This document shows, piece by piece, positions 5,230 to 51,290 of a DNA stretch of 64,000 nt. The notes beneath the pieces were generated by a model. The model was not told where the DNA came from, ran no database searches, and saw nothing but the letters and a program-made list of their open reading frames with translations. The DNA is taken from assembly GCA_019236675.1 (NCBI GenBank), contig JAFAIO010000144.1, forward strand, positions 34-64,033, in the 5' to 3' direction. The stretch is from Verrucomicrobiota bacterium. GTDB lineage: Bacteria; Verrucomicrobiota; Verrucomicrobiia; Chthoniobacterales; JAFAMB01. How positions within the stretch are numbered: the stretch's first letter is position 1; each line of letters begins with the position of its first letter. Position numbers and translations under genes: made by a program.

Positions 5230-7314
5230 ATGCAATATCTCCGTTGTCGCGTGAGTAGGTTCTTGCCAACTCGCGCTAGTCGCTATGTCTCAAATTGGCA
5301 GGCGCTCAAGACCTTCGTCTTTGGGCTAATGCTTGTACCCTTAATCGCGCCTGGCCATGCGTTCGGCCAAGCGAAAACCGTCGAACTGTCACCGCTTCTA
5401 GCGAAATCGAGTTTGCTCGGTGCGGTTGATCAGAATCAACAAATCAGTATCGTTCTGACTCTTCCTTTGTCGAACCCTCAGGGTGCCGCTGAGTTTGTAC
5501 AACACGTTTCAAAGCCGGGAGACCCACTTTTTCACCAGTACCTTACACCGCAAGAGTTCGCAGCCAGGTACGGCGCGAACGCCGCAGATTACGCTGCCCT
5601 TAAACAGTGGGCGGCCAATAATGGGCTTGCGATCGTGCATGAGTCTCTGGCTCGTACCTCACTAACGGTGCGTGGCTCAACGGCTCAATTGCAAACGCTG
5701 TTTAAGACCGAGCTCAATCGTTATCGTTCACCGGACGGCAAACAATTCTACTCTGCGGCCATAAGGCCGACCGTACCGGACGAGATCAGCTCACGCGTGA
5801 GCTGCGTGATCGGCCTGACCAACAGCGCCCATTATGCTTCTTTAGCCAAACCGTACAAGGTTCTGGGAGAAGACGCTGCTGTTCCGGCGGCCAGCCCCGA
5901 TATCGGCGGCACCGGCCCCGGCGGAAGCTACAGCGCTTCGGATCTAAGAACCTGTTATCAGATCCCGAACTTCGGCAATCTCGTTCCTGAAACCGTGGCC
6001 GTCTTTGAACAGGGTGGCTTCTATCAGTCGGATGTGGACAAGTACCTCAAAGCCATGAAGCTGACGCACCCGCCGGTGACCTTCGTCTCGGTTGATGGAT
6101 ACAACGGCGCCGTCGACAACAACGATGTTGAGCTCGAGGCGGTCCTGGATATCGACATGATCATTGGGATCAATCCCAAGGTGCAAGAGGTATTGGTGTA
6201 TGAAGATGGCAACGATCCGTTTGGCGTTGCGATAATCGATGCCCTAGATCAGGTCGCTACCGACAACAAAGCCCAAACCCTCAGCATTTCTTATGGGATC
6301 GACGAGGTTCAACAAGGTGACGCTCAGATCGCAGCCGAAGGTCAGGCTCTAACCCAGTTACAAACAGAGGGAATAACCGTCTTGGTCAGCGCGGGCGATA
6401 ACGGAGCCTACGGCCGAACCGGGGGATTCTCTAACCCAGCTCAATTAAACGCTCCCGATCCCGGATCGCAACCGCTGGTAACCTGCGTCGGTGGTACCAC
6501 GCTGACCACCGGACCGGGCGAAGTCTACAATGGTGAAGAGGTATGGAACCGTTTAGCGCTTGGTTTCGGCGCCACCGGCGGCGGTGTTAGTTCGTACTGG
6601 CCAATCCCAAGTTGGCAATTGCCTTCGTATGTAACCGGCAACGGCGGATCATCCACTTATCGTAGTGTGCCGGACGTTGGCGCCGTGGGCGATCCATTGA
6701 CCGGGGTGGGCATCTATTCCTCGCCCAATGGCGGTTGGGTGCAGATCGGCGGTACTAGCGTTTCGGCCCCGATTTGGGGTGGTTATATCAGTGTCTTGAA
6801 CGCCGGTATGCAATACCTGTTAGGCCAGAAGATCGGGTTCTTCAATCCGACATTGTACAGCATCGGCTTCAATGATCCGGCCAATTACCTATTTCCGGTT
6901 CCGGATGGGTCAAACGGGAACGCCGCCCTTTATGGAGGCACCCCTGGATATAACGCCGGTTTTGGTTACACCAATTGTACCGGCTCGGGCACAATTTTCG
7001 GCGGCGGTTTCACCACCCAAGTGATACTCGCCTCCACCACGGGTGGGAAAGCTCCTTCCGGTTTTGTGTTCTTTCCATTGAAAGTAACCAAAACGTCGGT
7101 CGAACTCCACTGGACAGAGTCAGACCTGGCCACCGGGTACATCATCGAGCTGATAACTCCGACTTCTCCTTTCAACACGTCGGCTGCCTATGTCACTAAG
7201 AAAACCAGGTTAACCATCACCGGACTCACGCCCGGAACCCCTCACTATCTCTATGCTTACGCCGTAAATGCAGGCGGCCACACAGAAGAGTTTACCGACT
7301 TCGTTACTAAGTAG
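5230..7314 (+). CDS. Secreted S53 (sedolisin/kumamolisin-type) serine-carboxyl peptidase with a prodomain and a C-terminal FN3-like domain.
   Basis: It has a signal peptide and a pro-kumamolisin-like N-region (PLFHQYLTPQEFAARYG). The E-x3-D motif lies in VELEAVLDID (nt 6127-6156), followed by SAGDNG. The GGTSVSAPIW catalytic Ser codon is at 6757-6759. An FN3-like tail follows. Confidence 0.9.
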   Translation: MQYLRCRVSRFLPTRASRYVSNWQALKTFVFGLMLVPLIAPGHAFGQAKTVELSPLLAKSSLLGAVDQNQQISIVLTLPLSNPQGAAEFVQHVSKPGDPLFHQYLTPQEFAARYGANAADYAALKQWAANNGLAIVHESLARTSLTVRGSTAQLQTLFKTELNRYRSPDGKQFYSAAIRPTVPDEISSRVSCVIGLTNSAHYASLAKPYKVLGEDAAVPAASPDIGGTGPGGSYSASDLRTCYQIPNFGNLVPETVAVFEQGGFYQSDVDKYLKAMKLTHPPVTFVSVDGYNGAVDNNDVELEAVLDIDMIIGINPKVQEVLVYEDGNDPFGVAIIDALDQVATDNKAQTLSISYGIDEVQQGDAQIAAEGQALTQLQTEGITVLVSAGDNGAYGRTGGFSNPAQLNAPDPGSQPLVTCVGGTTLTTGPGEVYNGEEVWNRLALGFGATGGGVSSYWPIPSWQLPSYVTGNGGSSTYRSVPDVGAVGDPLTGVGIYSSPNGGWVQIGGTSVSAPIWGGYISVLNAGMQYLLGQKIGFFNPTLYSIGFNDPANYLFPVPDGSNGNAALYGGTPGYNAGFGYTNCTGSGTIFGGGFTTQVILASTTGGKAPSGFVFFPLKVTKTSVELHWTESDLATGYIIELITPTSPFNTSAAYVTKKTRLTITGLTPGTPHYLYAYAVNAGGHTEEFTDFVTK

Positions 7315-7366: not shown

Positions 7367-9550
7367 ATGCACTCTCGATCTTATTCAACCGGTGCTCTGC
7401 GACCGGCACCCCTTTGTCGTCGCGCCAGCAGTTGGCGGCCTCTCGTCGCAGGGGCACTTGGCTTTATACTCGCCGTGTGGATCACTCCCGGCCTGGTATG
7501 CGGACAGGCAGCGACCGTCGAGCTTTCCCCGTTGGTAGCAAAATCCACCTTTGTTAGTTCCGTTGACCGAAACCAGCAAATCAGCGTGGCACTCACATTA
7601 CCGCTGTCGGATGCAAACGGCGCCGCCGCGTTTGTGCAGCACGTTTCCCAGCGCGGAGACCCGCTGTTTCATAAGTACCTGACACCTCAGGAGTTTGCCA
7701 ACCGGTTTGGAGCGAACCAGTTCGATTATGCCGCTTTGAAACAATGGGCGGCTGCCAACGGTCTAACCATTTCGCAAGAGTCCATTGCCCGAACCGTTTT
7801 AACGGTTCGCGGCACCGCGGCTCAATTCGAGTCGATTTTTAACACGCAGATCAACAACTATCGATCAGCGGCCGGCGACGAATTCTATTCCGCTGCCGTC
7901 AAACCAACTATCCCGAATGCGATTGCCGGTAAAGTTTCAGCGGTGATCGGTTTGACCGGAGGCAAGACGCGCACCCCGCATGTCAAAGTGGGAAAGGTAT
8001 TTGGCGAAAACCCGGCTCAAACTACTGCCCACAATACCGCCGACTACGGCGGGACTGGCCCAGGCGGCGCCTACTCTCCCTCGGACTTGCGAACGATCTA
8101 TTCGATTCCGACCTTCGGTAACCTTGACAACCAGACGGTGGTCGCCGTGTTCGAGCAAGGCGGCTTTTTCAAATCCGATGTCGAGAAATACCTCAATAAG
8201 ATGAACCTACCCCATCCACCCGTCACCGTTGTAGGCGTGGATGGCTATGACGGCACTGTCGACAGCTATCAGATTGAGCTCGAGTGCGTGATCGATATCG
8301 ATATGGTGATCGCAATTAATCCGAACGTGCAAGAGGTGTTGGTTTATGAAGATGGTATCGACACCTTCCAGGTCGCCTTGCTCGATGCTCTGAATCAGGT
8401 CGCCACAGATAACAAAGCGCAGGTCTTGAGCATCTCTTACGGTCAGGACGAGGGCAATCAAGGTAACGATGCGATGAACGCCGAGAATGGCATTCTCGTT
8501 CAATTAGCGTCTCAAGGGATCACGGTGACGGCAAGCTCCGGAGATCAGGGCGCTTATGGAGATGGTTATAACTACCCTTACAACGTCTCTGATCCCGCTT
8601 CCCAGCCCTACGTTACCGGAGTTGGTGGCACGACCTTGTTTACCGGCAAAGGCCAATTGTACGTCGGTGAGACGGTTTGGAACAGTTCGGATGTTTCAGT
8701 GGCAGCATCTGGAGGCGGCATCAGTTCTTTTTGGCCCTTTCCTAGCTTCCAGGGTGAGATGGACCCTTACTTCATCACCTACCTGGGAGGTTCTTTAACC
8801 TACCGCAATGTTCCCGATGTCGCCGCCGTGGCCGACCCAAACACGGGCGTGGCGGTTTACTCCAAGTACAATGGCGGCTGGCTGTCAGCCGGTGGTACAA
8901 GTGTCTCTTCGCCAATCTGGGCGAGTTACCTGAGCATCGTCAACGTAGGCATGAGGTACTCCGGGTTAGGTAACATTGGTTTCTTCAACCCTATCCTTTA
9001 CAATGTAGGTTACTGGGAGAACCCATTCGTTGTGGTTGGGGCTAAAACCGCCAGTAACAGCTCGATCGCAACGGACGGTTACGGCAAACCTGGTAATTTT
9101 TTGTATCCGATTACCTCCGGGACAAACGGCGACATTACCAGGTACCCCGGCTATCCCGGGTTCAGCGCAGGCGGCACTTTTTTTCAACCTCTTTACTGCA
9201 ATGCTACCGGTAACGGCTCTATCATCGGCGGCCTGTTTGCGACGCAGATTCTGATCTCAGGAACTCAGAGTGGAACCCAAACGGGCAATATCACTAATTT
9301 CACAGTGACCCCGGGTAGTACCACAGCAAAAATCAAATGGTCGCCAGTTAGCGCTGCCTTAGCCTACGTCGTTACCGTCGGTCATAATGGCCTGAGTTTT
9401 AGTGTCATTGATGCCTATCTTACCAAGGACACCTCTATAGAGGTCAAAGGTCTCATTCCTAACGACCCCTCCTATTCGGCAACACTCTGGGCCTTTAATG
9501 CCAGCGGCTTTTCCAACACCTACCCGATCTACTTTACAACCAAGAAATGA
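7367..9550 (+). CDS. Secreted S53 sedolisin-type peptidase, tandem paralog, with an FN3-like tail.
   Basis: The motif set matches the upstream gene: IELECVIDIDM, SSGDQG and GGTSVSSPIW. It starts 52 nt after the upstream S53 gene. Confidence 0.9.
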   Translation: MHSRSYSTGALRPAPLCRRASSWRPLVAGALGFILAVWITPGLVCGQAATVELSPLVAKSTFVSSVDRNQQISVALTLPLSDANGAAAFVQHVSQRGDPLFHKYLTPQEFANRFGANQFDYAALKQWAAANGLTISQESIARTVLTVRGTAAQFESIFNTQINNYRSAAGDEFYSAAVKPTIPNAIAGKVSAVIGLTGGKTRTPHVKVGKVFGENPAQTTAHNTADYGGTGPGGAYSPSDLRTIYSIPTFGNLDNQTVVAVFEQGGFFKSDVEKYLNKMNLPHPPVTVVGVDGYDGTVDSYQIELECVIDIDMVIAINPNVQEVLVYEDGIDTFQVALLDALNQVATDNKAQVLSISYGQDEGNQGNDAMNAENGILVQLASQGITVTASSGDQGAYGDGYNYPYNVSDPASQPYVTGVGGTTLFTGKGQLYVGETVWNSSDVSVAASGGGISSFWPFPSFQGEMDPYFITYLGGSLTYRNVPDVAAVADPNTGVAVYSKYNGGWLSAGGTSVSSPIWASYLSIVNVGMRYSGLGNIGFFNPILYNVGYWENPFVVVGAKTASNSSIATDGYGKPGNFLYPITSGTNGDITRYPGYPGFSAGGTFFQPLYCNATGNGSIIGGLFATQILISGTQSGTQTGNITNFTVTPGSTTAKIKWSPVSAALAYVVTVGHNGLSFSVIDAYLTKDTSIEVKGLIPNDPSYSATLWAFNASGFSNTYPIYFTTKK

Positions 9551-9668: not shown

Positions 9669-10135
9669 TTATCTGTGGGTCGACGAAGGTTCAATAGCGA
9701 TCGTATCTCCGTCGGTGGTGACATTCTCCTGCGACGTCGACTTTAAGTTTCCGGCGTTTTTCGCCAGTTGCCGCATATTTTGAATCATCTGTGTTAGTTC
9801 CGGCCCCTGCTTAACGTAGGCATCGCCCAACTCAGCCGTCCAAGCCAGATTCTGGCTCATTTGTGCGTACCGCCGGAAACTCGGTGATGGCTCTGACGCC
9901 AGGATCCCATGGCTGCTTGTCTACCTCTTTGGCCAGTACATCGCCGGTTAGCCCCTGATGTTGCTGCATCCATTGATTGGCCTCCATCACTTCCGATGGG
10001 TAGGTAGCGGCCGCCAGGATCTGTCCAATCAGCGGATCGGGATAGAGCGCGATCGGGGCCACAAGTTCACGCAATTGTGCCGGACTCAGCTGCACGGCTT
10101 GCGGCGCTCGGCTGCGAAGCGGGTGTGGCAGTCGT
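9669..10135 (-). pseudogene. DUF3300-family gene remnant that is frameshifted and truncated.
   Basis: ORF 9832..10095 (LVAPIALYPDPLIGQILAAATYPSEVMEANQW...FPAV) and ORF 9669..9860 (MSQNLAWTAELGDAY...) are consecutive parts of one DUF3300-like sequence in two frames, with the shift near 9875-9885. There is no signal peptide upstream, and the frame opens only at about 10135. The C-terminus ends early. Confidence 0.6.
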
Positions 10136-11782: not shown

Positions 11783-13225
11783 CTACGGAACCCTGAATAT
11801 GTACACGGCGCCTTGGTTGCAGATGTCTGCATCCGGCGCATAAGCACCGGTCACGACGGTTTCTCCGGAAATGCCCGCACTGATCCCGAGCTGGAGCGCG
11901 CTTTCTGCGTTAGGATCGTACGCAATCCAATTCCAGTGCGAGGTATCGTGCCAGCCAGTACTTGGCTCTTTGTAGACAAAAAGCTCGCCGCCGTACCACG
12001 CGCCATTCGGGGGAGTAGCACCGTTTGCGCCAACCGCGATTTTATCCCCCTGAATCGCCACTCCAATTCCTACCGCGGGCGTACCATCTAAGACCTCGGC
12101 GGTAGCGGCAGTTAATTTGGCGGTCTGGGTGCCAGATTCCCAATGACTGCCCTTGCGATGAAACACATAGGCCGCTCCGTAATATTGGCCATTCACCAGC
12201 GCATAGGGACAACCGGCAACCAGGGTATCACCGCTGATACCCATACTATATCCCAAGTAACCTCCGTCAGGGTCTGACGGCTGCAGGGTCGCCGTCGGCT
12301 TATCGGTTGTCACCCAGCCTCCGGCCGGCTTTTCATAAATTTGAACCACACCAGAGTTCGGTCCACCGGTACCAACCGTAGCCAGAGGAGCAGCCACCGC
12401 GATCGTGTCGCCGCTAATGCCAATCTGGAACCCGAGGCTGTCTCCGGATCCTCCGTCGGTCAAAATTGCAACCGGCATAATATCACCGGTCCAACCTTGC
12501 TTCGGCTTTATGTAGATGGCGACGGCGCCGGCACTACCGATACCGGTGAAGGCGGTATCTACGCATTCAGCGGCGATCGTATCGCCATAGATGGCTATCC
12601 CTCCTTCACCCCCGAGCTGGAACCTAGCGCTAGGTGACTGCAGGCGAGCGCTTTCTGTCGTGGATTTCCAGCCGCTAGCCGGTTTGACGTAGACATACAT
12701 CTCCCGGGTATACGACCCATTGCCCATGTCGTACGCACACCCCAGAACGATGGTGTCGCCACTGATGCCAACCGCAAACCCCAAAGTTGGCCAGATCTGG
12801 GTTGAGGCATCGGAAGCAGACAGCTCGGCCACGGGTATCGGCAGGTGTGTGCCCCAGCCTTCCTTCGGTTCGACATAGACATAGCCCGCACCAACGTACA
12901 GTTGCCCGTTGACAGTGCGGTTTGGTTCGCCAGCAACAATCGTGTTGCCGTAAATGGCTAAACCATACCCAAAGTTTTGGTTAACTGCGGGCTCACTGTT
13001 CGGAGAGGTTAATATCTTCTCCTCGATTGCCCGACCGCTAGTCGATGGATAAATAGAGCCAAAAGTATTGACCTGCGTTCCGGCCGTAGCAGATCCGTCC
13101 GCAAATAGGGTACTGGGTGCTAATAGCAGAGAGACGGAGAGCAGTCTCCCGAGAAAAGCAATTTGTGGGCGCCGTCCCAGAACAGCGCTGTTGCTAACGC
13201 ATGATAGGAAAAACCGAGCCGCCAT
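11783..13225 (-). CDS. Secreted FG-GAP-type repeat protein (predicted 7-bladed beta-propeller).
   Basis: It has a signal peptide and seven repeats of the form G(Y/F)x(L/V/I)(A/G)I(S/Y)GDT(I/L)V.G, plus GAAYVF and GAVYIF strands. Confidence 0.8.
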   Translation of the reverse strand: MAARFFLSCVSNSAVLGRRPQIAFLGRLLSVSLLLAPSTLFADGSATAGTQVNTFGSIYPSTSGRAIEEKILTSPNSEPAVNQNFGYGLAIYGNTIVAGEPNRTVNGQLYVGAGYVYVEPKEGWGTHLPIPVAELSASDASTQIWPTLGFAVGISGDTIVLGCAYDMGNGSYTREMYVYVKPASGWKSTTESARLQSPSARFQLGGEGGIAIYGDTIAAECVDTAFTGIGSAGAVAIYIKPKQGWTGDIMPVAILTDGGSGDSLGFQIGISGDTIAVAAPLATVGTGGPNSGVVQIYEKPAGGWVTTDKPTATLQPSDPDGGYLGYSMGISGDTLVAGCPYALVNGQYYGAAYVFHRKGSHWESGTQTAKLTAATAEVLDGTPAVGIGVAIQGDKIAVGANGATPPNGAWYGGELFVYKEPSTGWHDTSHWNWIAYDPNAESALQLGISAGISGETVVTGAYAPDADICNQGAVYIFRVP

Positions 13226-13237
13226 ATCTATATTGTA

Positions 13238-13266
13238 CGGAAATAAAATTGAAAGTTGCGCGATTT
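13238..13266. promoter_or_regulatory. Conserved 29-nt block shared with 46796-46824 in the other sigma-divergent intergenic region.
   Basis: CGGAAATAAAATTGAAAGTTGCGCGATTT versus CGGAAAAAAATTTGAAAGTTGTGCAATTT gives 25 of 29 identical positions without gaps (my count). Confidence 0.35.
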
Positions 13267-13446
13267 AGCATCACTCGCCCGAAGCTCGTGACGGAATGCA
13301 CATGGCGGATCGCGAATGGCAAAGATTGCGCGCACTGAAATCTGGCCGCGTTCTTTTGCTATCTGCTATTCGGTAGCGAGCTTCAGGCCAGCCACCGCCA
13401 GCTTTGCCTTGATCCTCCGCCCCCCTGGGTTTTACTAAGGTTCGGC

Positions 13447-14193
13447 ATGGAAGGCTGGCTAAGCTCAAGCGCAGGGGGACAGCTCCGATTCGAGACCACG
13501 CATTGGAGCGTAGTCTGCGCTGCCGGCGGAGAAGGCGAGCAGCGCCGAGACGCGCTCGAAGACCTCTATCATCGCTACTGCTACCCGGTTTATTCCTTTA
13601 TTCGCCGGCGAGGCCACAACCGCCAGGATGCCCAGGACTTAACCCATGACTTTTTCATTTATCTCCTGGAAAAAGACGGGTTTAATCGGGCCGCGGCTGG
13701 CCAAGGCAAGTTTCGTACTTTTCTTCTTAGAGCATTAGAATTTTTTCTCAGCCATGCGGGCGAGCGCGCTCGCACTCAGAAACGAGGTGGCCGCACCAAA
13801 TTGGTGTTTCTCGACGACGAAGCCGCTGAAGGCGCTTATCAGCTAATTGATCCCGGTCTGACCGCCGAACAGCTATTTGATGCCCAATGGGCAATGATGT
13901 TGATCGAAAGCACATTCGCTCGCTTGAAACTGGAGATGGAACAGGCTGGGAGACGAGAGCTCTACGATCAGCTATCCGGATTTTTGCTGGGGGGCGAAGA
14001 GACCTCGTATGTTGAAGTAGCTCAACGAATCGGTCTTACCGTCGCAGCGACTAAAGCCGCGATTTATCGCTTGAGAGTTCGGTATCGCGAAATTTTGCGA
14101 GCCGAAGTCGCGCGAACCGTAGCCAGTTCCACAGATTTCGATGCCGAGATTCGCGCCCTCCAGGCCTCCCTCTTAAACGGCTCACAGGGCTAA
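13447..14193 (+). CDS. ECF-type sigma-70 family factor (sigma1), of the STK-linked class.
   Basis: It has region-2-like (DAQDLTHDFFIYLLEK) and region-4-like (YVEVAQRIGLTVAATKAAIYRLRVRYREILR) segments and the N-terminal leader MEGWLSSSAGGQLRFETTHWS. A kinase gene follows 110-116 nt downstream. Confidence 0.85.
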   Translation: MEGWLSSSAGGQLRFETTHWSVVCAAGGEGEQRRDALEDLYHRYCYPVYSFIRRRGHNRQDAQDLTHDFFIYLLEKDGFNRAAAGQGKFRTFLLRALEFFLSHAGERARTQKRGGRTKLVFLDDEAAEGAYQLIDPGLTAEQLFDAQWAMMLIESTFARLKLEMEQAGRRELYDQLSGFLLGGEETSYVEVAQRIGLTVAATKAAIYRLRVRYREILRAEVARTVASSTDFDAEIRALQASLLNGSQG

Positions 14194-14309
14194 GTACCGT
14201 TGCAACAACTTGAAGGTAGGCCGACTCCCGTCTTGCCAACCTCGGCCTTTTCCGATAAAACCCGCTCAGTTCGGGCGTTTTCGTTGGTGGAAATCAGGGA
14301 TTCTTGGCC

Positions 14310-17102: not shown

Positions 17103-17204
17103 GTCGGAGAGGCCGCGCCGCGAGACTGATGTTGGCAACAGGTCTGCCGGCATTAGCCGTCCTTGTATTGCAATCTGGCGCTGATCGTAATACGCTACGA
17201 TGTC

Positions 17205-17444
17205 GTGAAAACGCTTGTGGTGCGAATTGATAACGATCTGAACGCCGAATTGACGAGACTGGCTAACCGACGGGGTTGGACAAAATCTGCTTTCGTTCGC
17301 GAAATGATTCGGCTGTCTCTCTCTTCGCAAACAGCGGCTAAAGGTTCCGCTTACGAAGTCATGCTGGGGGGCGTCGGCTCTATCCGAACTGGGCTCAAAG
17401 ATTTAGGGTCAAATCCGAAACATCTCGAAGGCTTTGGCCACTAG
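17205..17444 (+). CDS. vapB: Ribbon-helix-helix antitoxin (VapB/CopG-like).
   Basis: The sequence KTLVVRIDNDLNAELTRLANRRGWTKSAFVREMIR is RHH-like. The likely start is the GTG at 17205. The stop TAG overlaps the GTG start of the PIN gene by 1 nt. Confidence 0.7.
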   Translation: MKTLVVRIDNDLNAELTRLANRRGWTKSAFVREMIRLSLSSQTAAKGSAYEVMLGGVGSIRTGLKDLGSNPKHLEGFGH

Positions 17445-17863
17445 TGACTCGCGTGATCCTGGATACAGGTCCACTGGTGGCCTTACTAGATGAGAACGAG
17501 TCGTCGCATTCGTGGGCGGCCGAACAGCTCAAAACAATACAGATTCCCTTGATTACGTGCGAAGCAGTGATCGCCGAGGCTTGCTTCCTTTTGCGCTCTT
17601 TTCCCGCGGGAATAGCAAACATCGGCAACTGGATCGAGCGAGAATTCATCGAGCCGCGCTTTGATCTCGCCAGAGAAGCAGAGGCCACTTTCGCTCTCCT
17701 CAAGAAATTTTCCGATGTGCCAATGTCCTTCGCTGACGCGTGTCTGGTCCGCTTATCAACGCAGCATCCGGAACACAAAGTCTTCACCTTAGACAAAGAC
17801 TTTCTCATCTACCGAACAAGTCCGCGCCAACGAATCCCGGTTCTGATGCCTGGGGTTGAGTAA
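17444..17863 (+). CDS. vapC: PIN-domain toxin (VapC-like ribonuclease).
   Basis: VILDTGPLVALLD, a conserved acidic residue in CEAVIAEA, and FADACLV and FTLDKDF together match the PIN acidic quartet pattern. Confidence 0.85.
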   Translation: MTRVILDTGPLVALLDENESSHSWAAEQLKTIQIPLITCEAVIAEACFLLRSFPAGIANIGNWIEREFIEPRFDLAREAEATFALLKKFSDVPMSFADACLVRLSTQHPEHKVFTLDKDFLIYRTSPRQRIPVLMPGVE

Positions 17864-18029: not shown

Positions 18030-18078
18030 CCTTTCACCTTTCACCTTTCACCTTTCACCTTTCACCTTTCACCTTTCA
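18030..18078. repeat. Heptanucleotide tandem array (CCTTTCA) x7.
   Basis: I counted seven perfect copies directly. Confidence 0.95.
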
Positions 18079-18113
18079 CTGCTCACTGCTCACTGCTCAC
18101 TGCTCACTGCTCA
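18079..18113. repeat. Heptanucleotide tandem array (CTGCTCA) x5 plus a partial copy; it contains the stop codon of the giant gene.
   Basis: I counted five perfect copies directly. The minus-strand TGA at 18104-18106 lies in the fourth unit. Confidence 0.95.
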
Positions 18114-29635: not shown

Positions 29636-29664
29636 CGTCGGCCTCGCAAGCGAGGCAGCGCTCC
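29588..29664. repeat. Repeat family B, compact copy: perfect 26-bp inverted repeat with a 25-nt loop.
   Basis: GGAGCGCTGCCTCGCTTGCGAGGCCG (29588-29613) is the exact reverse complement of 29639-29664. The flanking 2 bp also pair. Confidence 0.9.
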
Positions 29665-29857
29665 AGGACTGCACTTGGTGAGCGGAGTACCCCCCATCTT
29701 TAGTAGAGAACGCGAGTTCTAGTTTTCTATGGTTACAATCTCGCGAAGTCTCGGCTACCTGCTTCGAGCGTCGTAAAAAGTTCCCCACACCGCACTTAAT
29801 GCGGAATTCTTCTGCGAATGGGGCCAGAAATTTTCCGCCTCGGGGCAACCCTTGTTT

Positions 29858-29878
29858 TGCTATCTGCTATTTGCTATT
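29858..29878. repeat. Heptamer array TGCTATC-TGCTATT-TGCTATT.
   Basis: Read directly. A two-unit copy lies at 13357-13370 within a longer shared block. Confidence 0.8.
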
Positions 29879-33464: not shown

Positions 33465-33573
33465 AATGAGAAAGCCAGTTTCCTCGATTACCTTGAACCG
33501 AACGACCAGCCAGAAGCAGCCTTTATCAAATTGCAGACCGCAAGGTCAAGTGTCTGTGGTGCGAAAGACACCG

Positions 33574-33763
33574 GTGGAGCGTTGCCTTGCTTCCGCCTTC
33601 GCCAAGCCTACGGCGCGACAGGTCGCGAGGCCGATGCGGTAGGCACCCGTGGAGCGGTTGCCGCGCTTGCGAGGCCGATAAGCGGTCGGCAACCGTGGAG
33701 CGCTGCCGCGCTTGCGAGGCCGATAAGCGGTCGGCAACCGTGAAGCGCTGCCTCGCTTACGCC
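33574..33763. repeat. Tandem amplification (units of 45-46 bp) of the left arm of repeat family B.
   Basis: The units are at 33649-33694, 33695-33739 and a partial one at 33740-33763. A degenerate unit lies at 33574-33648. Confidence 0.8.
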
Positions 33764-36104: not shown

Positions 36105-36116
36105 ATTCTCTTGTTG

Positions 36117-38912: not shown

Positions 38913-38981
38913 TGCTTTTACCTTTCGATACAGAACTTGTGTCATCTGCGGTTTGTTTTGGGCTTGATACATGGCCGTTCC

Positions 38982-44554: not shown

Positions 44555-46720
44555 CTAGGGTTTTGTCGAGAAAGTGTCAGCACCCTCGGAGAAACTATTC
44601 GGACTAATTGCCCAAACAATCAGCGAATAACTATTGGTGCCCGGGATCAGGCCAGTCAGCTTAATCTTTGTTTGTTTTGTCAGATAAGCCTTTGTCGGAG
44701 GATAGACGAAACCGACGTTGAGATCTGCGAGCTGCACAATGTAACCCGAGGCTCCGCTCACCGCCTCCCACGTGGCGACAGCCGAGGTGGACGTGGCAGT
44801 GACATTCAAATTGGTAATCCCGCCAGGCCCGGTTGTTGAGCTGATGTCGGTGACCAGTAGCTGCGGGAAGAAGTTTGCTCCCCACAACGAACCGTTACCG
44901 GTACAGTTATCATAGCCATAGCCCGCGCTAAAGCCGGGATTCCCAAACGATAAACCCGGTGGAAGCCCATTGGAGCCTTCGATAATATCAAACAATTGGT
45001 TCGCCGCGAATCCTTGGCCGCCGTTGAACGGAGCGCCGACCGCATACAGAAGTGAGTTAAGATAACCCACATTCTTGAAGCCAAGGTATTGGAAACCTGC
45101 ATTCAAAATGCTGATGTAGCCAGCCCAGATTGGAGCTGACACACTCGTTCCGCCCACCGTCACCCAACCACCGTAGGGTTTAGCGTAGACCGCAACCCCG
45201 GTGAACAGATCGCCGACCGCCGCGACGTCCGGGACATTCCGAAACGTGGACGATCCGCCGTTGCTGGTCATGTATCCCGAAACGGGTTCGTACTGTTGAT
45301 AGAACGGAAGCGGCCAATACGAGCTAATACCACCGCCGGTCGCACCGGCATTGGAAGCCAATTCGTTCCACACTAGTTCACCCGAATAGTTAGAGTTCCC
45401 GTCTGTAAACAGCGTGGTGCCACCAACCGCCGTCACGAACGGTTGGGATGAGGGATCTGAAACATTGTAGGGGTACGCAGATCCGTCGCCATAAGCCCCT
45501 TTGTCACCCGCGCTTGCCAGTACCGTGATTCCTTCGCCGGTGAGCTGGGCCAAAGCAGTATTTTCGGCTTCCATCGCCGCGGTGCCTTGCAAACCCTCGT
45601 CTTGTCCATAGGAAATACTCAGGACCGATGCTTTGTTATCATCGGCGACCTGCATCATGGCATCGACCAAAGCAGTCTGGAACGGGTCAATCGAGTCCTC
45701 ATACGACAGTATTTGCGACACACTCGGATTGATTCCGGCGATCATATCGATATCGAGCGCCGCCTCGAGTTCAATCTGTGGCACGTTCGTAACGACCGTT
45801 GTGGGCGAACCGTTAACGCCAATCTGGGTGACTTTCCGCGCCCCCAAATTGTTCGCTTTGAAATATTTCTCCACGTCCGAGACATAAACTCCACCCTGCT
45901 CGAAGACAGCGACGACGGTCTCCTTTTGTAGACTGCCGAAGCCGGGAATCGAATACGCGGTTCGCAAATTCGCCGCATCATAGGCTCCACCAGGACCAGT
46001 TCCGTGAGAGCTGTCCGCCTTGACCACATTTAACTCCGGCGATTCGCCGAGTTGCTTGCCTGCGATCACCATAGGAACGTATTGTCTGCTGCCCGTGAGC
46101 CCGAGAACGCCGCTCACTTTCGAAGCAATCGCGCTCGGCACCGTCGGTTTCACACTGGCGGAATAGAACTCCGCACCATCCTGAGCTCGATACCGGCTGA
46201 TCTGAGTGTTAAACACGTTCTGAAACTGTGCCACCGTGCCGCGCACCGCCAATATCGTCCGCGCCACTGACTCCTGTGTCACTCTCAGCCCGTTGGCTAC
46301 CGCCCATGCTTTCAGTGCCGCATAATCAGCTGCATTCGCGCCGTACCTGGTCGCGAATTCTTGTGGCGTGATGTATCGATGAAACAGCACGTCCCTAGGA
46401 GTCGAAACTCGGCGGGCAAACTCTGCTGCACCTTGCGGATCCGACAATGGCAAGCACAGGGTCACCCCAATCTCTTGATTCGCATCCGCAGCCGCTAGAT
46501 AAGCAGATTTGGTAATCAAGGGAGAAACCTCGATAGTGGTAGGCGCCGCAAGCAACGCACTTGGAGCTAGCAGAGCCAATGCGTAACCCAATGTCGTTGC
46601 GATCCGGAGTAAGCGCCGGTTAGCCGTACCTCGATTCCAATCGATTGCCTTGATCAAATCGAGAAGCGCCCAACCCGACTTGTTTGGCCTGCGGGCCCTC
46701 GTTTTAAGTAGACTTTGCAT
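44555..46720 (-). CDS. Secreted S53 sedolisin-type peptidase with an FN3-like tail (fourth paralog).
   Basis: Motifs are IELEAALDIDMIAG, SAGDKG and GGTSVSAPIW. The start is placed at the ATG at 46720 (MQSLLKTRARR...). The track extension to 46972 runs through repeat DNA. Confidence 0.9.
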   Translation of the reverse strand: MQSLLKTRARRPNKSGWALLDLIKAIDWNRGTANRRLLRIATTLGYALALLAPSALLAAPTTIEVSPLITKSAYLAAADANQEIGVTLCLPLSDPQGAAEFARRVSTPRDVLFHRYITPQEFATRYGANAADYAALKAWAVANGLRVTQESVARTILAVRGTVAQFQNVFNTQISRYRAQDGAEFYSASVKPTVPSAIASKVSGVLGLTGSRQYVPMVIAGKQLGESPELNVVKADSSHGTGPGGAYDAANLRTAYSIPGFGSLQKETVVAVFEQGGVYVSDVEKYFKANNLGARKVTQIGVNGSPTTVVTNVPQIELEAALDIDMIAGINPSVSQILSYEDSIDPFQTALVDAMMQVADDNKASVLSISYGQDEGLQGTAAMEAENTALAQLTGEGITVLASAGDKGAYGDGSAYPYNVSDPSSQPFVTAVGGTTLFTDGNSNYSGELVWNELASNAGATGGGISSYWPLPFYQQYEPVSGYMTSNGGSSTFRNVPDVAAVGDLFTGVAVYAKPYGGWVTVGGTSVSAPIWAGYISILNAGFQYLGFKNVGYLNSLLYAVGAPFNGGQGFAANQLFDIIEGSNGLPPGLSFGNPGFSAGYGYDNCTGNGSLWGANFFPQLLVTDISSTTGPGGITNLNVTATSTSAVATWEAVSGASGYIVQLADLNVGFVYPPTKAYLTKQTKIKLTGLIPGTNSYSLIVWAISPNSFSEGADTFSTKP

Positions 46721-46795
46721 AATGTGTTTTTCTTCTTCAGCTTCTGGTGCGCCAGCCGTCGAAGGGAAACGCCGCGCTCCATAGAGTCCTATTCC

Positions 46796-46824
46796 CGGAA
46801 AAAAATTTGAAAGTTGTGCAATTT
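46796..46824. promoter_or_regulatory. Second copy of the conserved 29-nt block (see 13238-13266).
   Basis: 25 of 29 positions are identical. It lies in the divergent S53 / sigma2 intergenic region. Confidence 0.35.
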
Positions 46825-46878: not shown

Positions 46879-47075
46879 GGAGCGCTGCTCGCTTGCGAGA
46901 CCGAAGGGGTGGCCACCCAAACCGATGCGCTGAATTCGGTGTGACAGCTTTAACCGTTGTAGACGCCTGCAAGGTTTTTAGGCATTGCGTTCGGAGGGAC
47001 GCGACGCCTCATCCAACTATGGGCAGAAGCGAGCCAACGCTCCGACCGTATCGGCCTCGCAAGCGAGGCAGCGCT
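46879..47075. repeat. Repeat family B, expanded copy (arms about 145 nt apart).
   Basis: The left arm is GGAGCGCTGCTCGCTTGCGAGACCG (46879-46903) and the right arm is CGGCCTCGCAAGCGAGGCAGCGCT (47052-47075). Confidence 0.75.
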
Positions 47076-47085
47076 TAACGGTTCA

Positions 47086-47124
47086 CCTTTCACTTTTCAC
47101 CTCTCGCCCCCTCTCACTTCTCAC
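47086..47124. repeat. Degenerate heptamer array (CCTTTCA / CTTTTCA / CCTCTCG ...).
   Basis: Read directly. It is related to the array at 18030-18078. Confidence 0.6.
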
Positions 47125-47140
47125 GTATGTTCCGGGCGGC

Positions 47141-47881
47141 ATGACTGGTTGGCTAAGTTCAAGCGCGGGTGGGCATCTCGCATTCGAGACCACCCAATGG
47201 AGCTTGGTCTCTGCGGCCAACGACGACGAACAACGGCGGACCGCTCTCGAGGGCCTGTACCGGAGCTATTCCAGCCCCGTGTACGCGTTTATCCGACGCC
47301 ACGGATACAGTCGGCAGGACGCTCAAGATCTTACCCACGATTTCTTTATTCATCTCGTAGAAAAAAAGGCGTTAAGCCGAGCCGATCCGCATCGAGGAAA
47401 ATTCAGGAAATTTCTGCTGGGGTCGCTCCAGTTCTTCCTGCAACACGCTGCCGAGCGAGCCCGTACAGAGAAACGCGGCGGCCAAGCCAAAATTATCTTT
47501 CTGGATGACGAAACCGCTGAAGCCGGCTACCAGCTCGCTGACCCGGGTCAGACCGCCGAACAGATCTTCGACGCCCGCTGGGTCGCCGCGCTAATTGAAG
47601 GTGCGCTTAACCGTTTGGAAGCTGAGATGGAGCACAGCGGTAAAAAAAAGCTGTTTGAGCAAATCTGCGGTTTTCTCCTAGAAGATGAAGAAAGCTCGTA
47701 CGTTGAGGTGGCTCAACGCACGGGTCTCACCCTCAGTGCAGTCAAAGCGGCTATTTATCGGTTACGGGGGCGTTATCGTGAACTTTTGCGCGAGGAGGTC
47801 GCTCGCACCGTGATGAGTTCCACCGACTTCGACGACGAAATCCGCGCTTTTCGCGCCTCGCTGGCGAGGCGTCAGAAGTGA
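47141..47881 (+). CDS. ECF-type sigma factor (sigma2), paralog of sigma1.
   Basis: It begins MTGWLSSSAGGHLAFETTQWS and is collinear with sigma1 over its full length. The ATG at 47141 is used; the track extension to 46985 runs through repeats. Confidence 0.85.
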   Translation: MTGWLSSSAGGHLAFETTQWSLVSAANDDEQRRTALEGLYRSYSSPVYAFIRRHGYSRQDAQDLTHDFFIHLVEKKALSRADPHRGKFRKFLLGSLQFFLQHAAERARTEKRGGQAKIIFLDDETAEAGYQLADPGQTAEQIFDARWVAALIEGALNRLEAEMEHSGKKKLFEQICGFLLEDEESSYVEVAQRTGLTLSAVKAAIYRLRGRYRELLREEVARTVMSSTDFDDEIRAFRASLARRQK

Positions 47882-47883
47882 TT

Positions 47884-48437
47884 GGTGAGAGGTGAGATCG
47901 CACCACCACCCAGATCGGAGGGGCGTTGCATTCCGCGTCCGCTGCTCGCACGCGTGTCGACGCCTGCAATCGTCTACAGGTAACCGGCTTGAACAGACGC
48001 GACGCCCCGGGGACCATGGTGGGAGATGCTCCCGGACGGCCCTATGCCTGAACCGGAGCGGTCGTCGATCCTGTTCGGACGGTGCTGTTAGGCCGGAAAC
48101 CACGCCGAGCCGTGATCCAGCGCTTGGCCACGGCTCCGACTTCGCCGCCGATGGTTGGAGCTAGATGGCGGGCTAGGAAGGCTACGTCTGACAAATCGGC
48201 GCGCCTTTAGGCGTATCGACATCATTCGGCAAAAGGCACCAGGAGCTTCGTTCCAAATGTAAGGACGTTCAGCAGCCTCGCCCCACCAACGTTCCCCGGG
48301 GCGTCGCGTCTATTCGAATCTGTTATCTGTAACGGGTTTCCGGCGTCGATACGGTTGCGAGCTATCAAGCGGAATGCAACGCCCCTCCGTTCTGGATTAG
48401 GCAGCGCACAATCCTCCAATCACGCCTCACCTCTCAC
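47884..48437. mobile_element. MITE-like non-coding element (about 554 bp) with long imperfect terminal inverted repeats (repeat family A), inserted in the sigma2-STK2 spacer.
   Basis: Three complementary cores pair the two arms. GGTGAGAGGTGAG (47884-47896) matches CTCACCTCTCAC (48426-48437). A 21-mer at 47916-47936 matches 48369-48389. A 19-mer at 47995-48013 matches 48293-48311. There is no credible ORF inside. Confidence 0.6.
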
Positions 48438-48479: not shown

Positions 48480-51290
48480 GTGAAAGGGCAGGAAGTGGAC
48501 CTTTTGGTGCGAGAAAGGATTTGTAGGGGCTGTCAAAAGAGCATTAGTCCCAACGCTTCCTTTTATGGTTATTGCCTCGATTGCCTGTTAATGCCGCTTT
48601 TCGACTTCGCAGATCTCAATGAGGAAAACACGGAGAAGCAATTCGAGCCCTACCAAATCTTAACGCATCCAGACGGTTCTTTTGTCGAACTAGGCCGAGG
48701 ATCAATGGGGATCACCTATCAAGCCATCGATACCACTTTGGAATTCCCGGTGGCGCTCAAAGTTATCGATTTCAAGGCAGCCGGCGTGGAGTCCAATCGG
48801 GAACGATTTCTGCGGGAAGCGCGCGCTGCCGCTAAACTGCGGCATCCGAATGTCGCTAGCGTCTTTTACTATGGTGTCCGGCCATACGGCCCCTGCTTCT
48901 ATGCGATGGAGTTAGTGGAAGGTGAGACGTTGGCCCAACGAGTGGAACGAACCGGTCCATTATCCACCCGGGACGCGTTGGAAGTGATCGCTCAGGTAGC
49001 CAAGGCATTGGAAGCAGCGGAAAAGCACGCGTTGGTGCATCGAGATTTAAAACCGGCCAATCTGATGCTGCTCCATGGCCCAGAGATCCATGTCAAAGTC
49101 ATCGATTTTGGACTCGCCAAAATGGTCGGGCATCAGGAACCAAAGGATCGGATTACCTACAATGGATTTATAGGGACGCCGGCATTCGCCAGTCCCGAAC
49201 AATTCTCCGGTGCGGAGATCGATCAACGGTCCGATTATTTTTCTTTAGGCGGCACCTTATTCTATTTGCTAACCGGCAAGCAACCATTCAAAGCCGATGA
49301 AATTGCTCAATTGGTTAAAGGGACACCCTTGGTAGGGACGAGCTGGAGCTCGTCTCTACCAAAGGTGATTCCTTTGCCGGTCCGGAAATTGGCAGCAGCG
49401 CTCTTAAGCCCCGATCCGAAGGATCGGCCCCAGAATGGGCCGGCCCTCGTTGAAGCCATCACCAAATGCCAGCTCGCAATCGAAGGAAGTCAAAAGCGGA
49501 TCGGAAAAAACGTGCTCTTAGCGATTGCTGCAGTTCTGCTCGGGGTAGCGATAGTGTTCCTTTGTCAAAGCGGTATCCTTACAAAAGATAGGGCCGCGAA
49601 ATCAATCGCCATTCTCCCTTTCGACAACCTGAGTCCAATAAAGGACGACTCCTACTTCGTTGACGGGGTTCAGGACGATATTCTTACTAACGTGGCGAAG
49701 GTCGCCGATCTGCAGGTGATCAGCCGCCGGAGTGTCCAAGCTTATCGGAACCTGGCTAACCGGCCGCCTCCCCGAGAAATCGGTGAAGCGCTCCACGTGC
49801 GTTATCTTTTAGATGGTAGCATCCAGCGAGAAAATAACCGGATACGCGTTACGGCCCGGCTGGAAGAGGCTCAGACCGGGCGAGAGCTTTGGGCGGAACA
49901 ATACGACGGCCAATTAACGGATATTTTCACGATTCAAACTGAACTCGCCGAAGCGGTCTCGCAGGAACTGAGGGCTAAGCTTTCGACAGCCGAAAAAAGC
50001 TCTCTTGGCGAGATACCAACGCGGGATTTTAGCGCCTACGAGCTCTATCTTCATGCCAAAGAGTTGCTGGCCAATTATGATGAGCAGACTCAGAGCACTG
50101 AATCGTTCTCTAGCGCAGCGCGGCTGCTTGAGGAGGCGGTCAACCGGGATCCTGGCTTTGCCCTTGCCTGGGCTCTGCTGGCACGAGCTCATGACGGTCT
50201 TTATTGGAGTAATGCAGACCATACCGAAAGCCGGCGCAGTTCCGCCGAAGCGGCCCTGCATCAAGCGTTAACCTTACGGCCGGATCTCGGCGAAGTTCAT
50301 CTCGAGGCTGGTAACCATCTACTGGTTACCACCCGCGATTATCCAGCAATCCGCCGCGAACTCGAGATCGCTCGTCGCACCTTACCAAATTCTGCTCACC
50401 TGTTTGGCCTATTAGCCACGGTTGCCTCACGGCAAGGCCAGTGGCTCGACGCTTTGCAAGACTACCAAAGAGCAGGAACACTCGACCCTAAAAATGTGCG
50501 TTGGACTATCGATATCTCAGGTATCTACGATTTCCATCGACAGTACGAAGAGGTTCATCGTGGGTTTGTTGAAATCGCTGGAGCGGGAGCCAGTAACCAG
50601 TCGACCGACTACAAAAAGGCTGTGCTAACCTGGCAAGAAAAAGGGGATACCTCAGGATTTCATGCCTTGCTCGATGAACCTAACGGTCCGCTTCGGGGGA
50701 TGGGACGAGCGACGTTATTAAAGATCACTGCCGCAATGGCGGACCGGAATTTTGACAAAGCCGACCAGACCCTGGCTACGGATCCCAAGCAGGAGTTTGA
50801 TCTTGGCGATCGAAGATTTGTCTGCCGAGATTTCTTGCTCGGTTGGATCAAAAAGGTCGGAGGCGACACCGCCGCAGCGAAGACTGCATTCGAGAATGCG
50901 CGCCCGGTCCAGGTCGCCTATCTACAGAAGTGGCCGGATGACCCAAACCCCCTGATGATGTTGGCGCTCACGGATGCGGCGCTGGGGAGGACGGCGGACG
51001 CTCTGAACGAGGGAGGCAAAGCTGTTGCCATGATGCCGATCTCGAAAGATGCGATTGACGGACCGGTTTTAGCAACGGAATTGGCGCAAGTCTACGTATG
51101 GGCGGGTCAAAACGAATTGGCAATCCAACAGCTCGAGACGTTAAAACAGATCCCCCGAGCGCTAGTGTATGGTGATTTCGCCAAACTACCGGACTGGGAT
51201 TCGTTGCGAAATGAGCCCCGTTTTCAGAAGCTTCTATCCGAGCTCAAACCAATTCCGATCGCTAATCGAACTGCCATCGCGACAAAGTGA
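48480..51290 (+). CDS. Transmembrane Ser/Thr kinase (STK2), paralog of STK1.
   Basis: The architecture matches STK1: CxxC-x13-CxxC, HRDLKPANLML, DFGLAK, a TM segment, SIAILPFDNLSP... and a helical-repeat C-terminus. It starts at a GTG. Confidence 0.9.
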   Translation: MKGQEVDLLVRERICRGCQKSISPNASFYGYCLDCLLMPLFDFADLNEENTEKQFEPYQILTHPDGSFVELGRGSMGITYQAIDTTLEFPVALKVIDFKAAGVESNRERFLREARAAAKLRHPNVASVFYYGVRPYGPCFYAMELVEGETLAQRVERTGPLSTRDALEVIAQVAKALEAAEKHALVHRDLKPANLMLLHGPEIHVKVIDFGLAKMVGHQEPKDRITYNGFIGTPAFASPEQFSGAEIDQRSDYFSLGGTLFYLLTGKQPFKADEIAQLVKGTPLVGTSWSSSLPKVIPLPVRKLAAALLSPDPKDRPQNGPALVEAITKCQLAIEGSQKRIGKNVLLAIAAVLLGVAIVFLCQSGILTKDRAAKSIAILPFDNLSPIKDDSYFVDGVQDDILTNVAKVADLQVISRRSVQAYRNLANRPPPREIGEALHVRYLLDGSIQRENNRIRVTARLEEAQTGRELWAEQYDGQLTDIFTIQTELAEAVSQELRAKLSTAEKSSLGEIPTRDFSAYELYLHAKELLANYDEQTQSTESFSSAARLLEEAVNRDPGFALAWALLARAHDGLYWSNADHTESRRSSAEAALHQALTLRPDLGEVHLEAGNHLLVTTRDYPAIRRELEIARRTLPNSAHLFGLLATVASRQGQWLDALQDYQRAGTLDPKNVRWTIDISGIYDFHRQYEEVHRGFVEIAGAGASNQSTDYKKAVLTWQEKGDTSGFHALLDEPNGPLRGMGRATLLKITAAMADRNFDKADQTLATDPKQEFDLGDRRFVCRDFLLGWIKKVGGDTAAAKTAFENARPVQVAYLQKWPDDPNPLMMLALTDAALGRTADALNEGGKAVAMMPISKDAIDGPVLATELAQVYVWAGQNELAIQQLETLKQIPRALVYGDFAKLPDWDSLRNEPRFQKLLSELKPIPIANRTAIATK

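Follow-up and report, generated by a model that had tools for sequence, protein, structure and literature searches.

Sigma factors of the extracytoplasmic function (ECF) type that are linked to a kinase instead of an anti-sigma factor have been catalogued as groups ECF43, ECF59–62, ECF217, ECF267 and ECF283 (PMC7826278). Soil Verrucomicrobia, Planctomycetes and Acidobacteria are rich in such sigma factors, and only two of these have known outputs, both in ECF43: EcfK/PknS of Xanthomonas citri acts on the type VI secretion system (T6SS) and EcfP/PknT of Vibrio parahaemolyticus on polymyxin resistance (PMC13147305, PMC8999054). Here we analyse a 64,000-nucleotide stretch of DNA from a Verrucomicrobiota bacterium (contig JAFAIO010000144.1), referred to as the window, that carries three pairs of an ECF sigma gene and a Hanks-type Ser/Thr kinase (STK) gene. 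An initial annotation had suggested that the pairs and the protease and exoprotein genes around them may form a kinase-gated regulon for proteolysis and adhesion and had called the regulons of such pairs essentially undescribed, which is outdated for ECF43. On balance, we think that the locus holds three modules, two of which drive a divergent exoprotein gene by way of a promoter motif, the remaining proteases and a giant TpsA-like exoprotein having no detectable regulatory link to them. The basis of everything reported is computational, the genes of the window being taken from a listing of open reading frames (ORFs) and from Pfam/NCBIfam profile scans.

In ECF43, the consensus that replaces the acidic DAED motif is QTTA. 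EcfK has QATE at this position and is phosphorylated at T51 by PknS, in which an N-terminal extension of 83 residues is followed by a kinase domain, then by a transmembrane helix and by periplasmic tetratricopeptide repeats (TPRs) (PMC13147305). Charge restoration has been demonstrated for ECF43 and proposed for ECF59/60 (PMC8103513, PMC8999054).

The window contains three sigma–kinase pairs, four S53 peptidases, two S8-like proteins, one FG-GAP protein and one TpsA. Sigma1 (13447–14193) with STK1 (14304–17102) and sigma2 (47141–47881) with STK2 (48480–51290) are encoded on the plus strand, and sigma3 (32829–33464) with STK3 (29908–32811) on the minus strand, where the initial annotation had placed them. 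Its further observations also hold. A gene for an exported protein adjoins each pair (FG-GAP divergent from sigma1, TpsA after STK3, S53 divergent from sigma2), and no ORF resembling an anti-sigma factor adjoins any of the three sigma genes. The gaps between sigma and kinase genes measure 110 nt (sigma1–STK1), 17 nt (sigma3–STK3) and 598 nt (sigma2–STK2); the shortest holds no further ORF, and ORFs of at least 50 codons in the gaps are antisense or Arg-rich only, none with a transmembrane segment. The kinases all have a Pkinase domain (143–145 bits). Reading of their sequences showed the HRDLKPxN and DFG motifs to be intact, and each protein has a single transmembrane segment and TPRs at the C-terminus. 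A common design, an ECF sigma factor and a single-pass Hanks kinase with a periplasmic TPR-containing sensor, used in three independent units, appears to us the probable description of all three.

The sigma–kinase pairing is kept in relatives, whose loci are denoted by L-numbers (L001, L081, L165 and so on). Proteins of the window were compared by tblastn with 80 sigma1-family loci and 84 STK3-type loci, each taken with as much as 10 kb of flanking sequence to either side. The kinase gene lies directly 3´ of the sigma gene in 71 of the former, and a sigma3-like gene directly 5´ of the kinase gene in 56 of the latter. Closer relatives were reached through protein look-ups.

A predicted promoter and its divergent cargo genes

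The intergenic regions between sigma1 or sigma2 and the divergent gene have an extended similarity on the minus strand in common, which comes down to a bipartite motif of ECF type, (C/G)AACTTT-N11-12-(C/G)CG(G/T). Beside sigma1 it reads CGCAACTTTC-N-TTTCCGTAC (13235–13260, minus strand) and is the predicted promoter of a gene for an exported FG-GAP beta-propeller protein (11783–13225, minus strand; PF14312 (FG-GAP_2), 105 bits), the ATG of which is located 9 nt downstream, such that the transcript would be leaderless or nearly so. Beside sigma2 it reads CACAACTTTC-N-TTTCCGGGA (46793–46818, minus strand) and is the predicted promoter of S53d (44555–46720, minus strand; Pro-kuma_activ 98 bits), with the ATG 72 nt downstream. 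The two sites score 24.5 and 26.3 bits, respectively, against a position weight matrix (PWM) built from 12 instances beside family sigma genes, to which both sites contributed as training sites.

At a threshold of 19 bits or more, the PWM has 26 matches in 1.27 Mb, compared to 0.7 expected from shuffles. The sigma1-family loci account for 24 matches in 1.17 Mb against a single match in 0.90 Mb of STK3-type loci, which come from similar environments and phyla and served as the control set. At 17 bits or more, 13 matches fall within 420 nt 5´ of a sigma gene, 11 of them divergent from it. In all, the motif is enriched approximately 30-fold in the few hundred nucleotides beside sigma genes and points at the divergent ORF. 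In most cases this ORF starts 6–72 nt 3´ of the motif, and the transcripts are therefore predicted to be leaderless or short-leadered. By a count made by eye, about 20 of the approximately 26 ORFs that follow a motif start with a signal peptide. Among the products are S53, S8, FG-GAP, DUF5122 and NHL propeller, PEP-CTERM, small NTF2-like and S74-domain proteins, with NusG-like genes as the main exception to the signal-peptide pattern. In two loci (L008 and L009), the motif-driven divergent gene, about 200–270 nt 5´ of the sigma gene, encodes a NusG-like paralogue instead of an exported protein, a hint that a specialised antiterminator mediates the action of some modules.

Five loci of close relatives (L165, L166, L167, L168 and L170) were fetched after the PWM had been fixed and thus serve as independent validation. 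In the first three, CGCAACTTT-N11-TTTCCGTAC (23.6 bits) precedes a gene for a fusion of S53 and FG-GAP domains; in L168, a site of 27.5 bits precedes an S53 gene; and in L170, a variant of the motif is found before an S53 tandem. In L167, the motif has relocated together with the fusion gene, leaving an orphan copy of 24.5 bits beside the sigma gene. An alignment of the S53d–sigma2 intergenic region with that of L001 reveals two conserved blocks only, one comprising the motif and the 5´ untranslated region (UTR) of S53d and the other next to the sigma gene. The UTR of approximately 70 nt (46721–46792, minus strand) is near-invariant between the two, the rest of the intergenic region having diverged, and might hold a regulatory RNA element; an Rfam scan of the window gave no matches. 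A short upstream ORF starts 10 nt after the S53d promoter in the window, and its length is not conserved in L001.

The genes behind the motif are usually S53 genes in the closest subclade of sigma1/2, at 63% sigma identity or more (L001, L165–168 and L170). An S53 gene is divergent from the sigma2 ortholog in L001 and L168, and two tandem S53 genes are divergent from the sigma gene in L170 (63% identity). In L165 and L166, the gene divergent from the sigma1 ortholog encodes the S53+FG-GAP fusion of 1,095 residues; in L167, this gene has moved to the 3´ side of the kinase gene. The FG-GAP protein of the window is 46% identical to residues 701–1093 of the L165 fusion and can on this basis be regarded as the fusion cargo minus its peptidase part. 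S53 genes are absent from L169, L002 and L003, and further out, other genes for exported proteins replace S53 as the motif-linked cargo. Across the 80 and 84 loci searched by tblastn, S53 is adjacent only in L001, L081 and, distantly, L138.

This distribution bears on the possibility that sigma–kinase pairs and protease genes have both expanded and become neighbours by chance, the pairs controlling targets elsewhere or nothing nearby. The sigma1/2 family is indeed huge (1,677 protein matches and at least 514 matching stretches in species-representative genomes), several genomes have multiple copies close together, and most distant relatives have no protease neighbour. Chance alone would leave the approximately 30-fold enrichment of the motif beside sigma genes, its orientation towards a divergent and usually signal-peptide-encoding ORF, its co-migration with the relocated gene in L167 and the recurrence of S53 in L001, L165–168 and L170 without an explanation, and we consider it rather improbable. 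It is most likely, from the co-location of motif and genes, that sigma1 and sigma2 recognise (C/G)AACTTT-N11-12-(C/G)CG(G/T), and the one gene for an exported protein that lies divergent from each is probably under its control, namely FG-GAP for sigma1 and S53d for sigma2. What is supported of the kinase-gated regulon proposed in the initial annotation is the control of these two genes, not of the whole 46 kb.

The sigma1/2 family and its kinases

Sigma1 reads DAQDLTHDFF in sigma region 2.2, carries the motifs FxTTxWS at the N-terminus and KRGG in the linker, and has one additional helix at the C-terminus; sigma2 is a paralogue of 66% identity. Both are borderline ECF sigma factors according to the library model TIGR02937 (43.3 and 45.0 bits, cut-off 42.9) and remain below the cut-off of PF07638 (19–20 bits). 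The family, very large and strongly conserved, is hosted mainly by Verrucomicrobiota (Chthoniobacterales, Udaeobacter), with some members in Planctomycetota and Acidobacteriota. In an alignment of 82 family sigma factors, the N-terminal FxTTxWS motif is invariant, region 2.2 reads DAQDLTQDFF, the linker has the KRGG motif and Thr224 is invariant; among the members, conservation reaches 100% for D64 and 98% for Q63. The loss of the acidic DAED motif that characterises ECF43 does not apply to sigma1 and sigma2, where DAQDLT(H/Q)DFF is present. Because the acidic residues of region 2.2 are retained, the charge-restoration mechanism of ECF43 is not obviously applicable. Judged by sequence, sigma1 and sigma2 belong to a second, kinase-linked ECF family distinct from ECF43.

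Planctomycetal and other kinase-linked groups (ECF59–62, ECF217 and ECF283) are reportedly covered by Jogler in 2012 and Casas-Pastor in 2021. They resemble sigma1/STK1 and sigma2/STK2 in that a Ser/Thr kinase adjoins an ECF sigma factor, in the lack of an anti-sigma factor and in their occurrence in the PVC superphylum. Some of them keep a DAED-like motif (PMC8999054), as do sigma1 and sigma2, which differ in this respect from ECF59 and ECF60, reported to have Ser at the DAED position (PMC8103513). Within the accessible literature, the promoter motif was found nowhere described, and neither were the cargo pattern and the paired CxxC motifs of the kinases. Classical pairs of an ECF sigma factor and a membrane anti-sigma factor, such as RpoE/RseA and SigW/RsiW, are similar to the sigma1/2 modules in having a two-domain sigma factor, a –35 element of AAC type and an output that usually comprises adjacent genes for envelope or exported proteins. 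They differ in that the modules described here have no anti-sigma gene and mostly no autoregulatory promoter, and a kinase occupies the slot of the co-transcribed partner.

STK1 is composed of an N-terminal CxxC…CxxC segment, a kinase domain (Pkinase, 145 bits), one transmembrane segment and a periplasmic TolB-N/CadC-like domain with TPRs, as indicated by matches to CadC-like, TolB-N-like and TPR_END models. STK2 is a paralogue with the same architecture. The signature CxxC(G)-x9-17-CxxC(LL) is found at the N-terminus in 70 of the 71 sigma1-family kinases. These N-terminal segments have no significant Pfam match, and PDB entries with sequence similarity were found for the kinase domain only. 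The arrangement recalls PknG of Mycobacterium and Corynebacterium, in which a rubredoxin-like metal-binding module with Cys pairs (CxxCG) precedes a Hanks kinase and TPRs follow at the C-terminus. PknG itself is a soluble kinase that acts on GarA/OdhI and not on a sigma factor. Outside the kinase domain no sequence similarity between PknG and STK1/2 was detected, and the second motif in the latter is CxxCLL instead of CxxCG.

In the mechanism that we envisage, STK1 and STK2 would phosphorylate sigma1 and sigma2, with the N-terminal Cys4 motif of the kinase as a candidate control point that would serve for docking or tethering, and with Thr224 of the sigma factor together with its C-terminal helix as an alternative candidate. 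An AlphaFold2 model of sigma1 (pLDDT 77.6) has the canonical sigma2/sigma4 fold, and Thr224 precedes the one extra C-terminal helix; as a clue to mechanism, the model gave no answer. A variant of this scheme would have the kinases of the STK1/STK2 family act mainly as tethers in the manner of anti-sigma factors, their CxxC…CxxC domain holding the sigma factor at the membrane until a signal releases it. The near-universal presence of the motif in the family and the retention of an acidic region 2.2 and an acidic linker, with which binding to core RNA polymerase (RNAP) is expected without phosphorylation, are in line with this proposal. The motif of approximately 35 residues is, on the other hand, unlike known anti-sigma domains, as seen from the Pfam and PDB comparisons, and the intact catalytic motifs of the kinases argue that catalysis matters, making a predominantly tethering role very unlikely in our estimate. 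That the kinase phosphorylates its sigma factor is the reading that we retain. Taken further, sigma1/STK1 and sigma2/STK2 could represent a mechanistically distinct and very widespread plug-and-play class, controlled through the Cys4 module, Thr224 or the C-terminal helix and equipped with one swappable cargo, an exoprotein translated from a leaderless transcript and driven from a conserved divergent promoter, in this lineage an S53 peptidase. With its acidic core-binding surface intact, the sigma factor of such a class would not be open to gating by the charge restoration of ECF43. We regard this extension as doubtful.

Several observations weigh against the assignment of FG-GAP and S53d to kinase-controlled sigma1 and sigma2. 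With DAQD and the acidic linker kept, the charge-restoration model supplies no reason for dependence on a kinase, and no residue of either sigma factor could be put forward as the phospho-acceptor. In the case of the second module, sigma2 may be uncoupled from STK2 by an insertion that resembles a miniature inverted-repeat transposable element (MITE) in the sigma2–STK2 spacer. Both window sites were part of the PWM training set, the motif went undetected in the majority of family members whose sigma identity is lower than about 47%, and the survey covers one contig, such that a wider regulon may include distant proteases elsewhere in the genome. The motif is mostly absent 5´ of the sigma genes themselves, which means no autoregulation and is atypical for ECF sigma factors, and the proposed –10 element (CCGGA/CCGTA) is unusual. 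Co-location, finally, leaves the identity of the sigma factor that reads the motif unproven. A genuine motif could be read by another sigma factor or by a DNA-binding regulator that these Verrucomicrobia have in common, the ECF–kinase pairs being no more than frequent neighbours, and extra copies several kb away from any family sigma gene (L002, L004 and L012) would fit such an arrangement, as would the atypical –10 element and the missing copies before the sigma genes. The 24 matches against 1 in the control loci speak for a reader that belongs to the sigma1 family. The bipartite layout, the spacing and the distance to the start codon are those of a promoter; a –35 half of the form GAAC/CAAC + TTT is typical of ECF promoters; and the distant copies are compatible with additional members of the regulon. 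A reader other than sigma1/2 is, in our opinion, unlikely.

The MITE-like element (47910–48395, no strand assigned) is approximately 490 nt long and occurs as a partial copy at 2523–2592; its terminal inverted repeats are nested and measure 27 nt (96%) and 70 nt (79%). The orthologous spacer of L001 is without the element.

The ECF43-type pair, the remaining proteases and TpsA

Sigma3 scores well above the cut-offs of PF07638 (177 bits, cut-off 21) and TIGR02999 (208 bits, cut-off 126). Its region 2.2, ..SLQPTELVHEAY.., was aligned by eye to DAED-xxQExF and has QPTE in place of DAED. STK3 has an N-terminal extension of approximately 100 residues, conserved among orthologs as LF..W..E..SLL..D.FLE, followed by a kinase domain, one transmembrane segment and a periplasmic TPR region. 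On account of the PF07638/TIGR02999 membership, the QPTE at the DAED position and the PknS-like layout of the kinase, the pair is, by sequence, a new member of ECF43 that resembles EcfK/PknS. It shares with EcfK/PknS and EcfP/PknT a sigma factor of the PF07638/TIGR02999 type, the lack of an anti-sigma factor, a Thr-containing motif for DAED (QPTE in sigma3, QATE in EcfK, QTTA in the consensus) and an adjacent single-pass Hanks kinase with an N-terminal extension of about 80–100 residues and periplasmic TPRs. EcfK/PknS and EcfP/PknT differ from it in having established targets (the T6SS and polymyxin-resistance genes).

By analogy with EcfP/PknT and EcfK/PknS, sigma3 would be made constitutively and remain inactive until phosphorylated by STK3. 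A signal perceived by the periplasmic TPR sensor would activate STK3, which would phosphorylate the Thr in QPTE and possibly linker residues, enabling sigma3 to bind core RNAP. A candidate for a housekeeping-type promoter of sigma3–STK3, TTGACC-N17-GATAAA (33521–33550, minus strand), has an identical counterpart in L081 and similar ones in L082 and L084. Autoregulatory ECF promoters were sought before the sigma genes and none was found, the close sigma3 orthologs carrying this element instead. Sites of sigma70 type before sigma genes are weakly enriched family-wide (9 of 82 against 2.7 expected, and 5 of 42 against 1.6 expected). We infer that these sites and the missing autoregulatory motif fit constitutive synthesis with post-translational control.

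Outside one close relative, the sigma3–STK3 pair travels without the neighbours it has in the window. L081 (76–83% protein identity) keeps the order S8-like, S8-like, S53, sigma, kinase, followed by an AraC-type gene and not by TpsA. Orthologs at 47–53% STK3 identity retain only the sigma–kinase pair plus an unrelated small exported protein. A gene for an exported NTF2/SnoaL-like protein of 168 residues lies 3´ of the STK3 orthologs in L082 (4922–5428), L083 (3673–4179) and L084 (13477–13983). It was considered as a third conserved gene beside STK3 and dismissed, as it has no counterpart in the window. Small exported NTF2-like genes of a similar kind are motif-driven cargo in the sigma1-family loci L004, L007, L015 and L018.

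The proteases around the pairs are of two kinds. S53a (5230–7314, plus strand; Pro-kuma_activ 98 bits) has a signal peptide and an fn3 domain, and neither a promoter motif nor a link to a sigma factor was found for it. S53b (7367–9550, plus strand; Pro-kuma_activ 102 bits) is in tandem with S53a and has an ortholog of 71% identity at the same relative position in L165. S53c (34011–36104, minus strand) is part of an operon with two S8-like genes (36117–38972 and 38982–41828, both minus strand; Peptidase_S8 34 and 32 bits), which extends from 34011 to 41828 and is located 5´ of, and co-directional with, sigma3. All four S53 proteins, S53a–S53d, qualify as sedolisins (MEROPS S53) by their Pro-kuma_activ scores of 98–102 bits and the GGTS serine in 4/4; the scan also picked up the ExxxD pair in S53a, S53c and S53d, and inspection by eye located it in S53b. 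In the S8-like proteins of approximately 950 residues, the serine motif, as GTSAA(T/A)PH, is the only one recognisable of the three motifs of the subtilase Asp-His-Ser triad (D(T/S)G, HGT and GTSxAxP), and the weak Pfam match is to the C-terminal part of the domain. The initial annotation had placed both protease clusters between the pairs; this is correct for the S8-like/S8-like/S53c operon, and all three pairs lie to the right of the tandem S53a/S53b. A phylogenetic footprint 5´ of the S8-like operon was attempted with L081, the contig of which ends early, and nothing aligns.

The maximal ORF of the TpsA-like exoprotein (18104–29848, minus strand; 3,914 codons) has a TPS match of 68 bits and a C-terminal DUF3739 match of 111 bits. 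There is no in-frame ATG before the segment that resembles a signal peptide, and a GTG near 29550–29650 probably serves as the actual start. No gene of the TpsB type (POTRA/ShlB) is found among the ORFs of the 64-kb window. A toxin–antitoxin pair of VapBC type (17163–17863, plus strand), composed of an RHH_1 protein of 93 residues (23 bits) and a PIN protein of 139 residues (34 bits) with a one-base overlap of their genes, separates STK1 from the 3´ end of TpsA. It marks the left edge of a lineage-specific block of approximately 25 kb (about 17110–42100, no strand assigned) that comprises VapBC, TpsA, STK3, sigma3, S53c and the two S8-like genes.

This block is absent from the syntenic locus in L165 and L166, as judged by gene order and junction alignment; STK1 is followed directly by DUF1349 in that locus. 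The gene order there is S53b-like, DUF3300, two genes, SDR, S53 fragment, S53+FG-GAP fusion, sigma1, STK1, DUF1349 and ferritin-like. That of L165 matches the window on both sides of the gap, and L166 begins only at the SDR fragment. Flanking genes there are 92% (SDR), 86% (DUF1349) and 83% (ferritin-like) identical to those of the window, and the base composition of the block is unremarkable. From these comparisons, it would appear that a lineage-specific insertion or deletion, in either direction, placed the block beside the sigma1 and sigma2 modules. Because the block is missing in L165 and L166, the interleaving of pairs, proteases and TpsA is best seen as a recent juxtaposition, and on this comparison of loci three pairs interspersed with proteases and a giant exoprotein do not make up an ancestral unit.

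The absence of the block also bears on the original proposal that the whole region from 5 to 51 kb is one kinase-gated ECF regulon for proteolysis and adhesion that includes S53a/S53b, the S8-like/S53c operon and TpsA. The proposal draws on the presence of five S53 or S8-like loci and TpsA among the three pairs, on the S8-like/S53c–sigma3–STK3 synteny retained in L081 and on the S53 genes that accompany the sigma1/2 subclade. No motif comparable to that of FG-GAP and S53d was found before S53a or S53b, the S8-like/S53c operon, TpsA or sigma3, and the other matches in the window are weak and badly placed. The synteny occurs in L081 only, which as a close relative says little. The expected co-occurrence in relatives materialised for S53 genes divergent from the sigma gene in the closest sigma1/2 subclade and failed for the rest: the sigma3-type loci are adjoined by TpsA in 0/84, by an S8-like gene in 1/84 and by an S53 gene in 2/84 cases, and over both locus sets, TpsA is adjacent nowhere and S8-like genes only in L081. 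A single regulon throughout the region is therefore highly improbable, and the support for regulatory links extends to FG-GAP and S53d only.

The window contains several further sequence elements. A palindrome similar to repetitive extragenic palindromes (REPs), GGCCTCGCAAGCGAGGCAGCGCT, occurs at 29590, 29640, 33699, 33938 and 47053 and is confined to intergenic regions near sigma3, sigma2 and the 5´ end of TpsA, two copies being contained in the maximal TpsA ORF, towards its 5´ end; a 45-nt tandem array is found at 33625–33758. As a regulatory site it was discarded, since it looks species-specific and repetitive. It is also found before the sigma2 orthologs in L001 and, one base shorter, in L168, and the repeats of L081 differ. 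A 17-mer common to the upstream regions of sigma1 and TpsA, TTTTGCTATCTGCTATT, was likewise rejected as a promoter, being a heptamer microsatellite, (ATAGCAx)n. Tandem heptamers (CCTTTCA, TCACTGC, TACTGAT, CTCCTAG and ATAGCAx, and the GTGTTGGA type in L167) are plentiful in the intergenic DNA of the lineage, in the window at 13354–13370, 18030–18117, 29855–29878, 47072–47130, 61387–61426 and 61471–61503. They are also present in L001, L003, L081, L167 and L168, often just 5´ of genes, including sigma genes. The DUF3300 gene of the window (9669–10095, minus strand; PF11737, 96 bits for the N-terminal 87 residues) is split over two frames and is probably a pseudogene, because the syntenic gene of L165 is intact with 362 codons. 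A gene for a GluR0-like ligand-gated potassium channel (62186–63331, plus strand; SBP_bac_3, Lig_chan and Ion_trans_2) is unrelated to the sigma–kinase pairs.

Implications for kinase-linked sigma factors

The pairing of an ECF sigma factor and a kinase is in itself an already catalogued kind of system. New here are the predicted promoter, the pattern of variable cargo, which in this lineage consists of S53 peptidases, and the Cys4 signature that marks the kinases. The picture of three pairs among proteases and TpsA is mostly one of recent juxtaposition and should not be read as a conserved island. For the second large family of kinase-linked sigma factors, the analysis predicts a rule of one sigma factor and one neighbouring cargo gene, with an S53 (sedolisin) output in this lineage. 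The prediction offers a handle on when uncultured soil bacteria secrete proteases, and on the kinase control of a sigma factor that retains its acidic core-binding motif.

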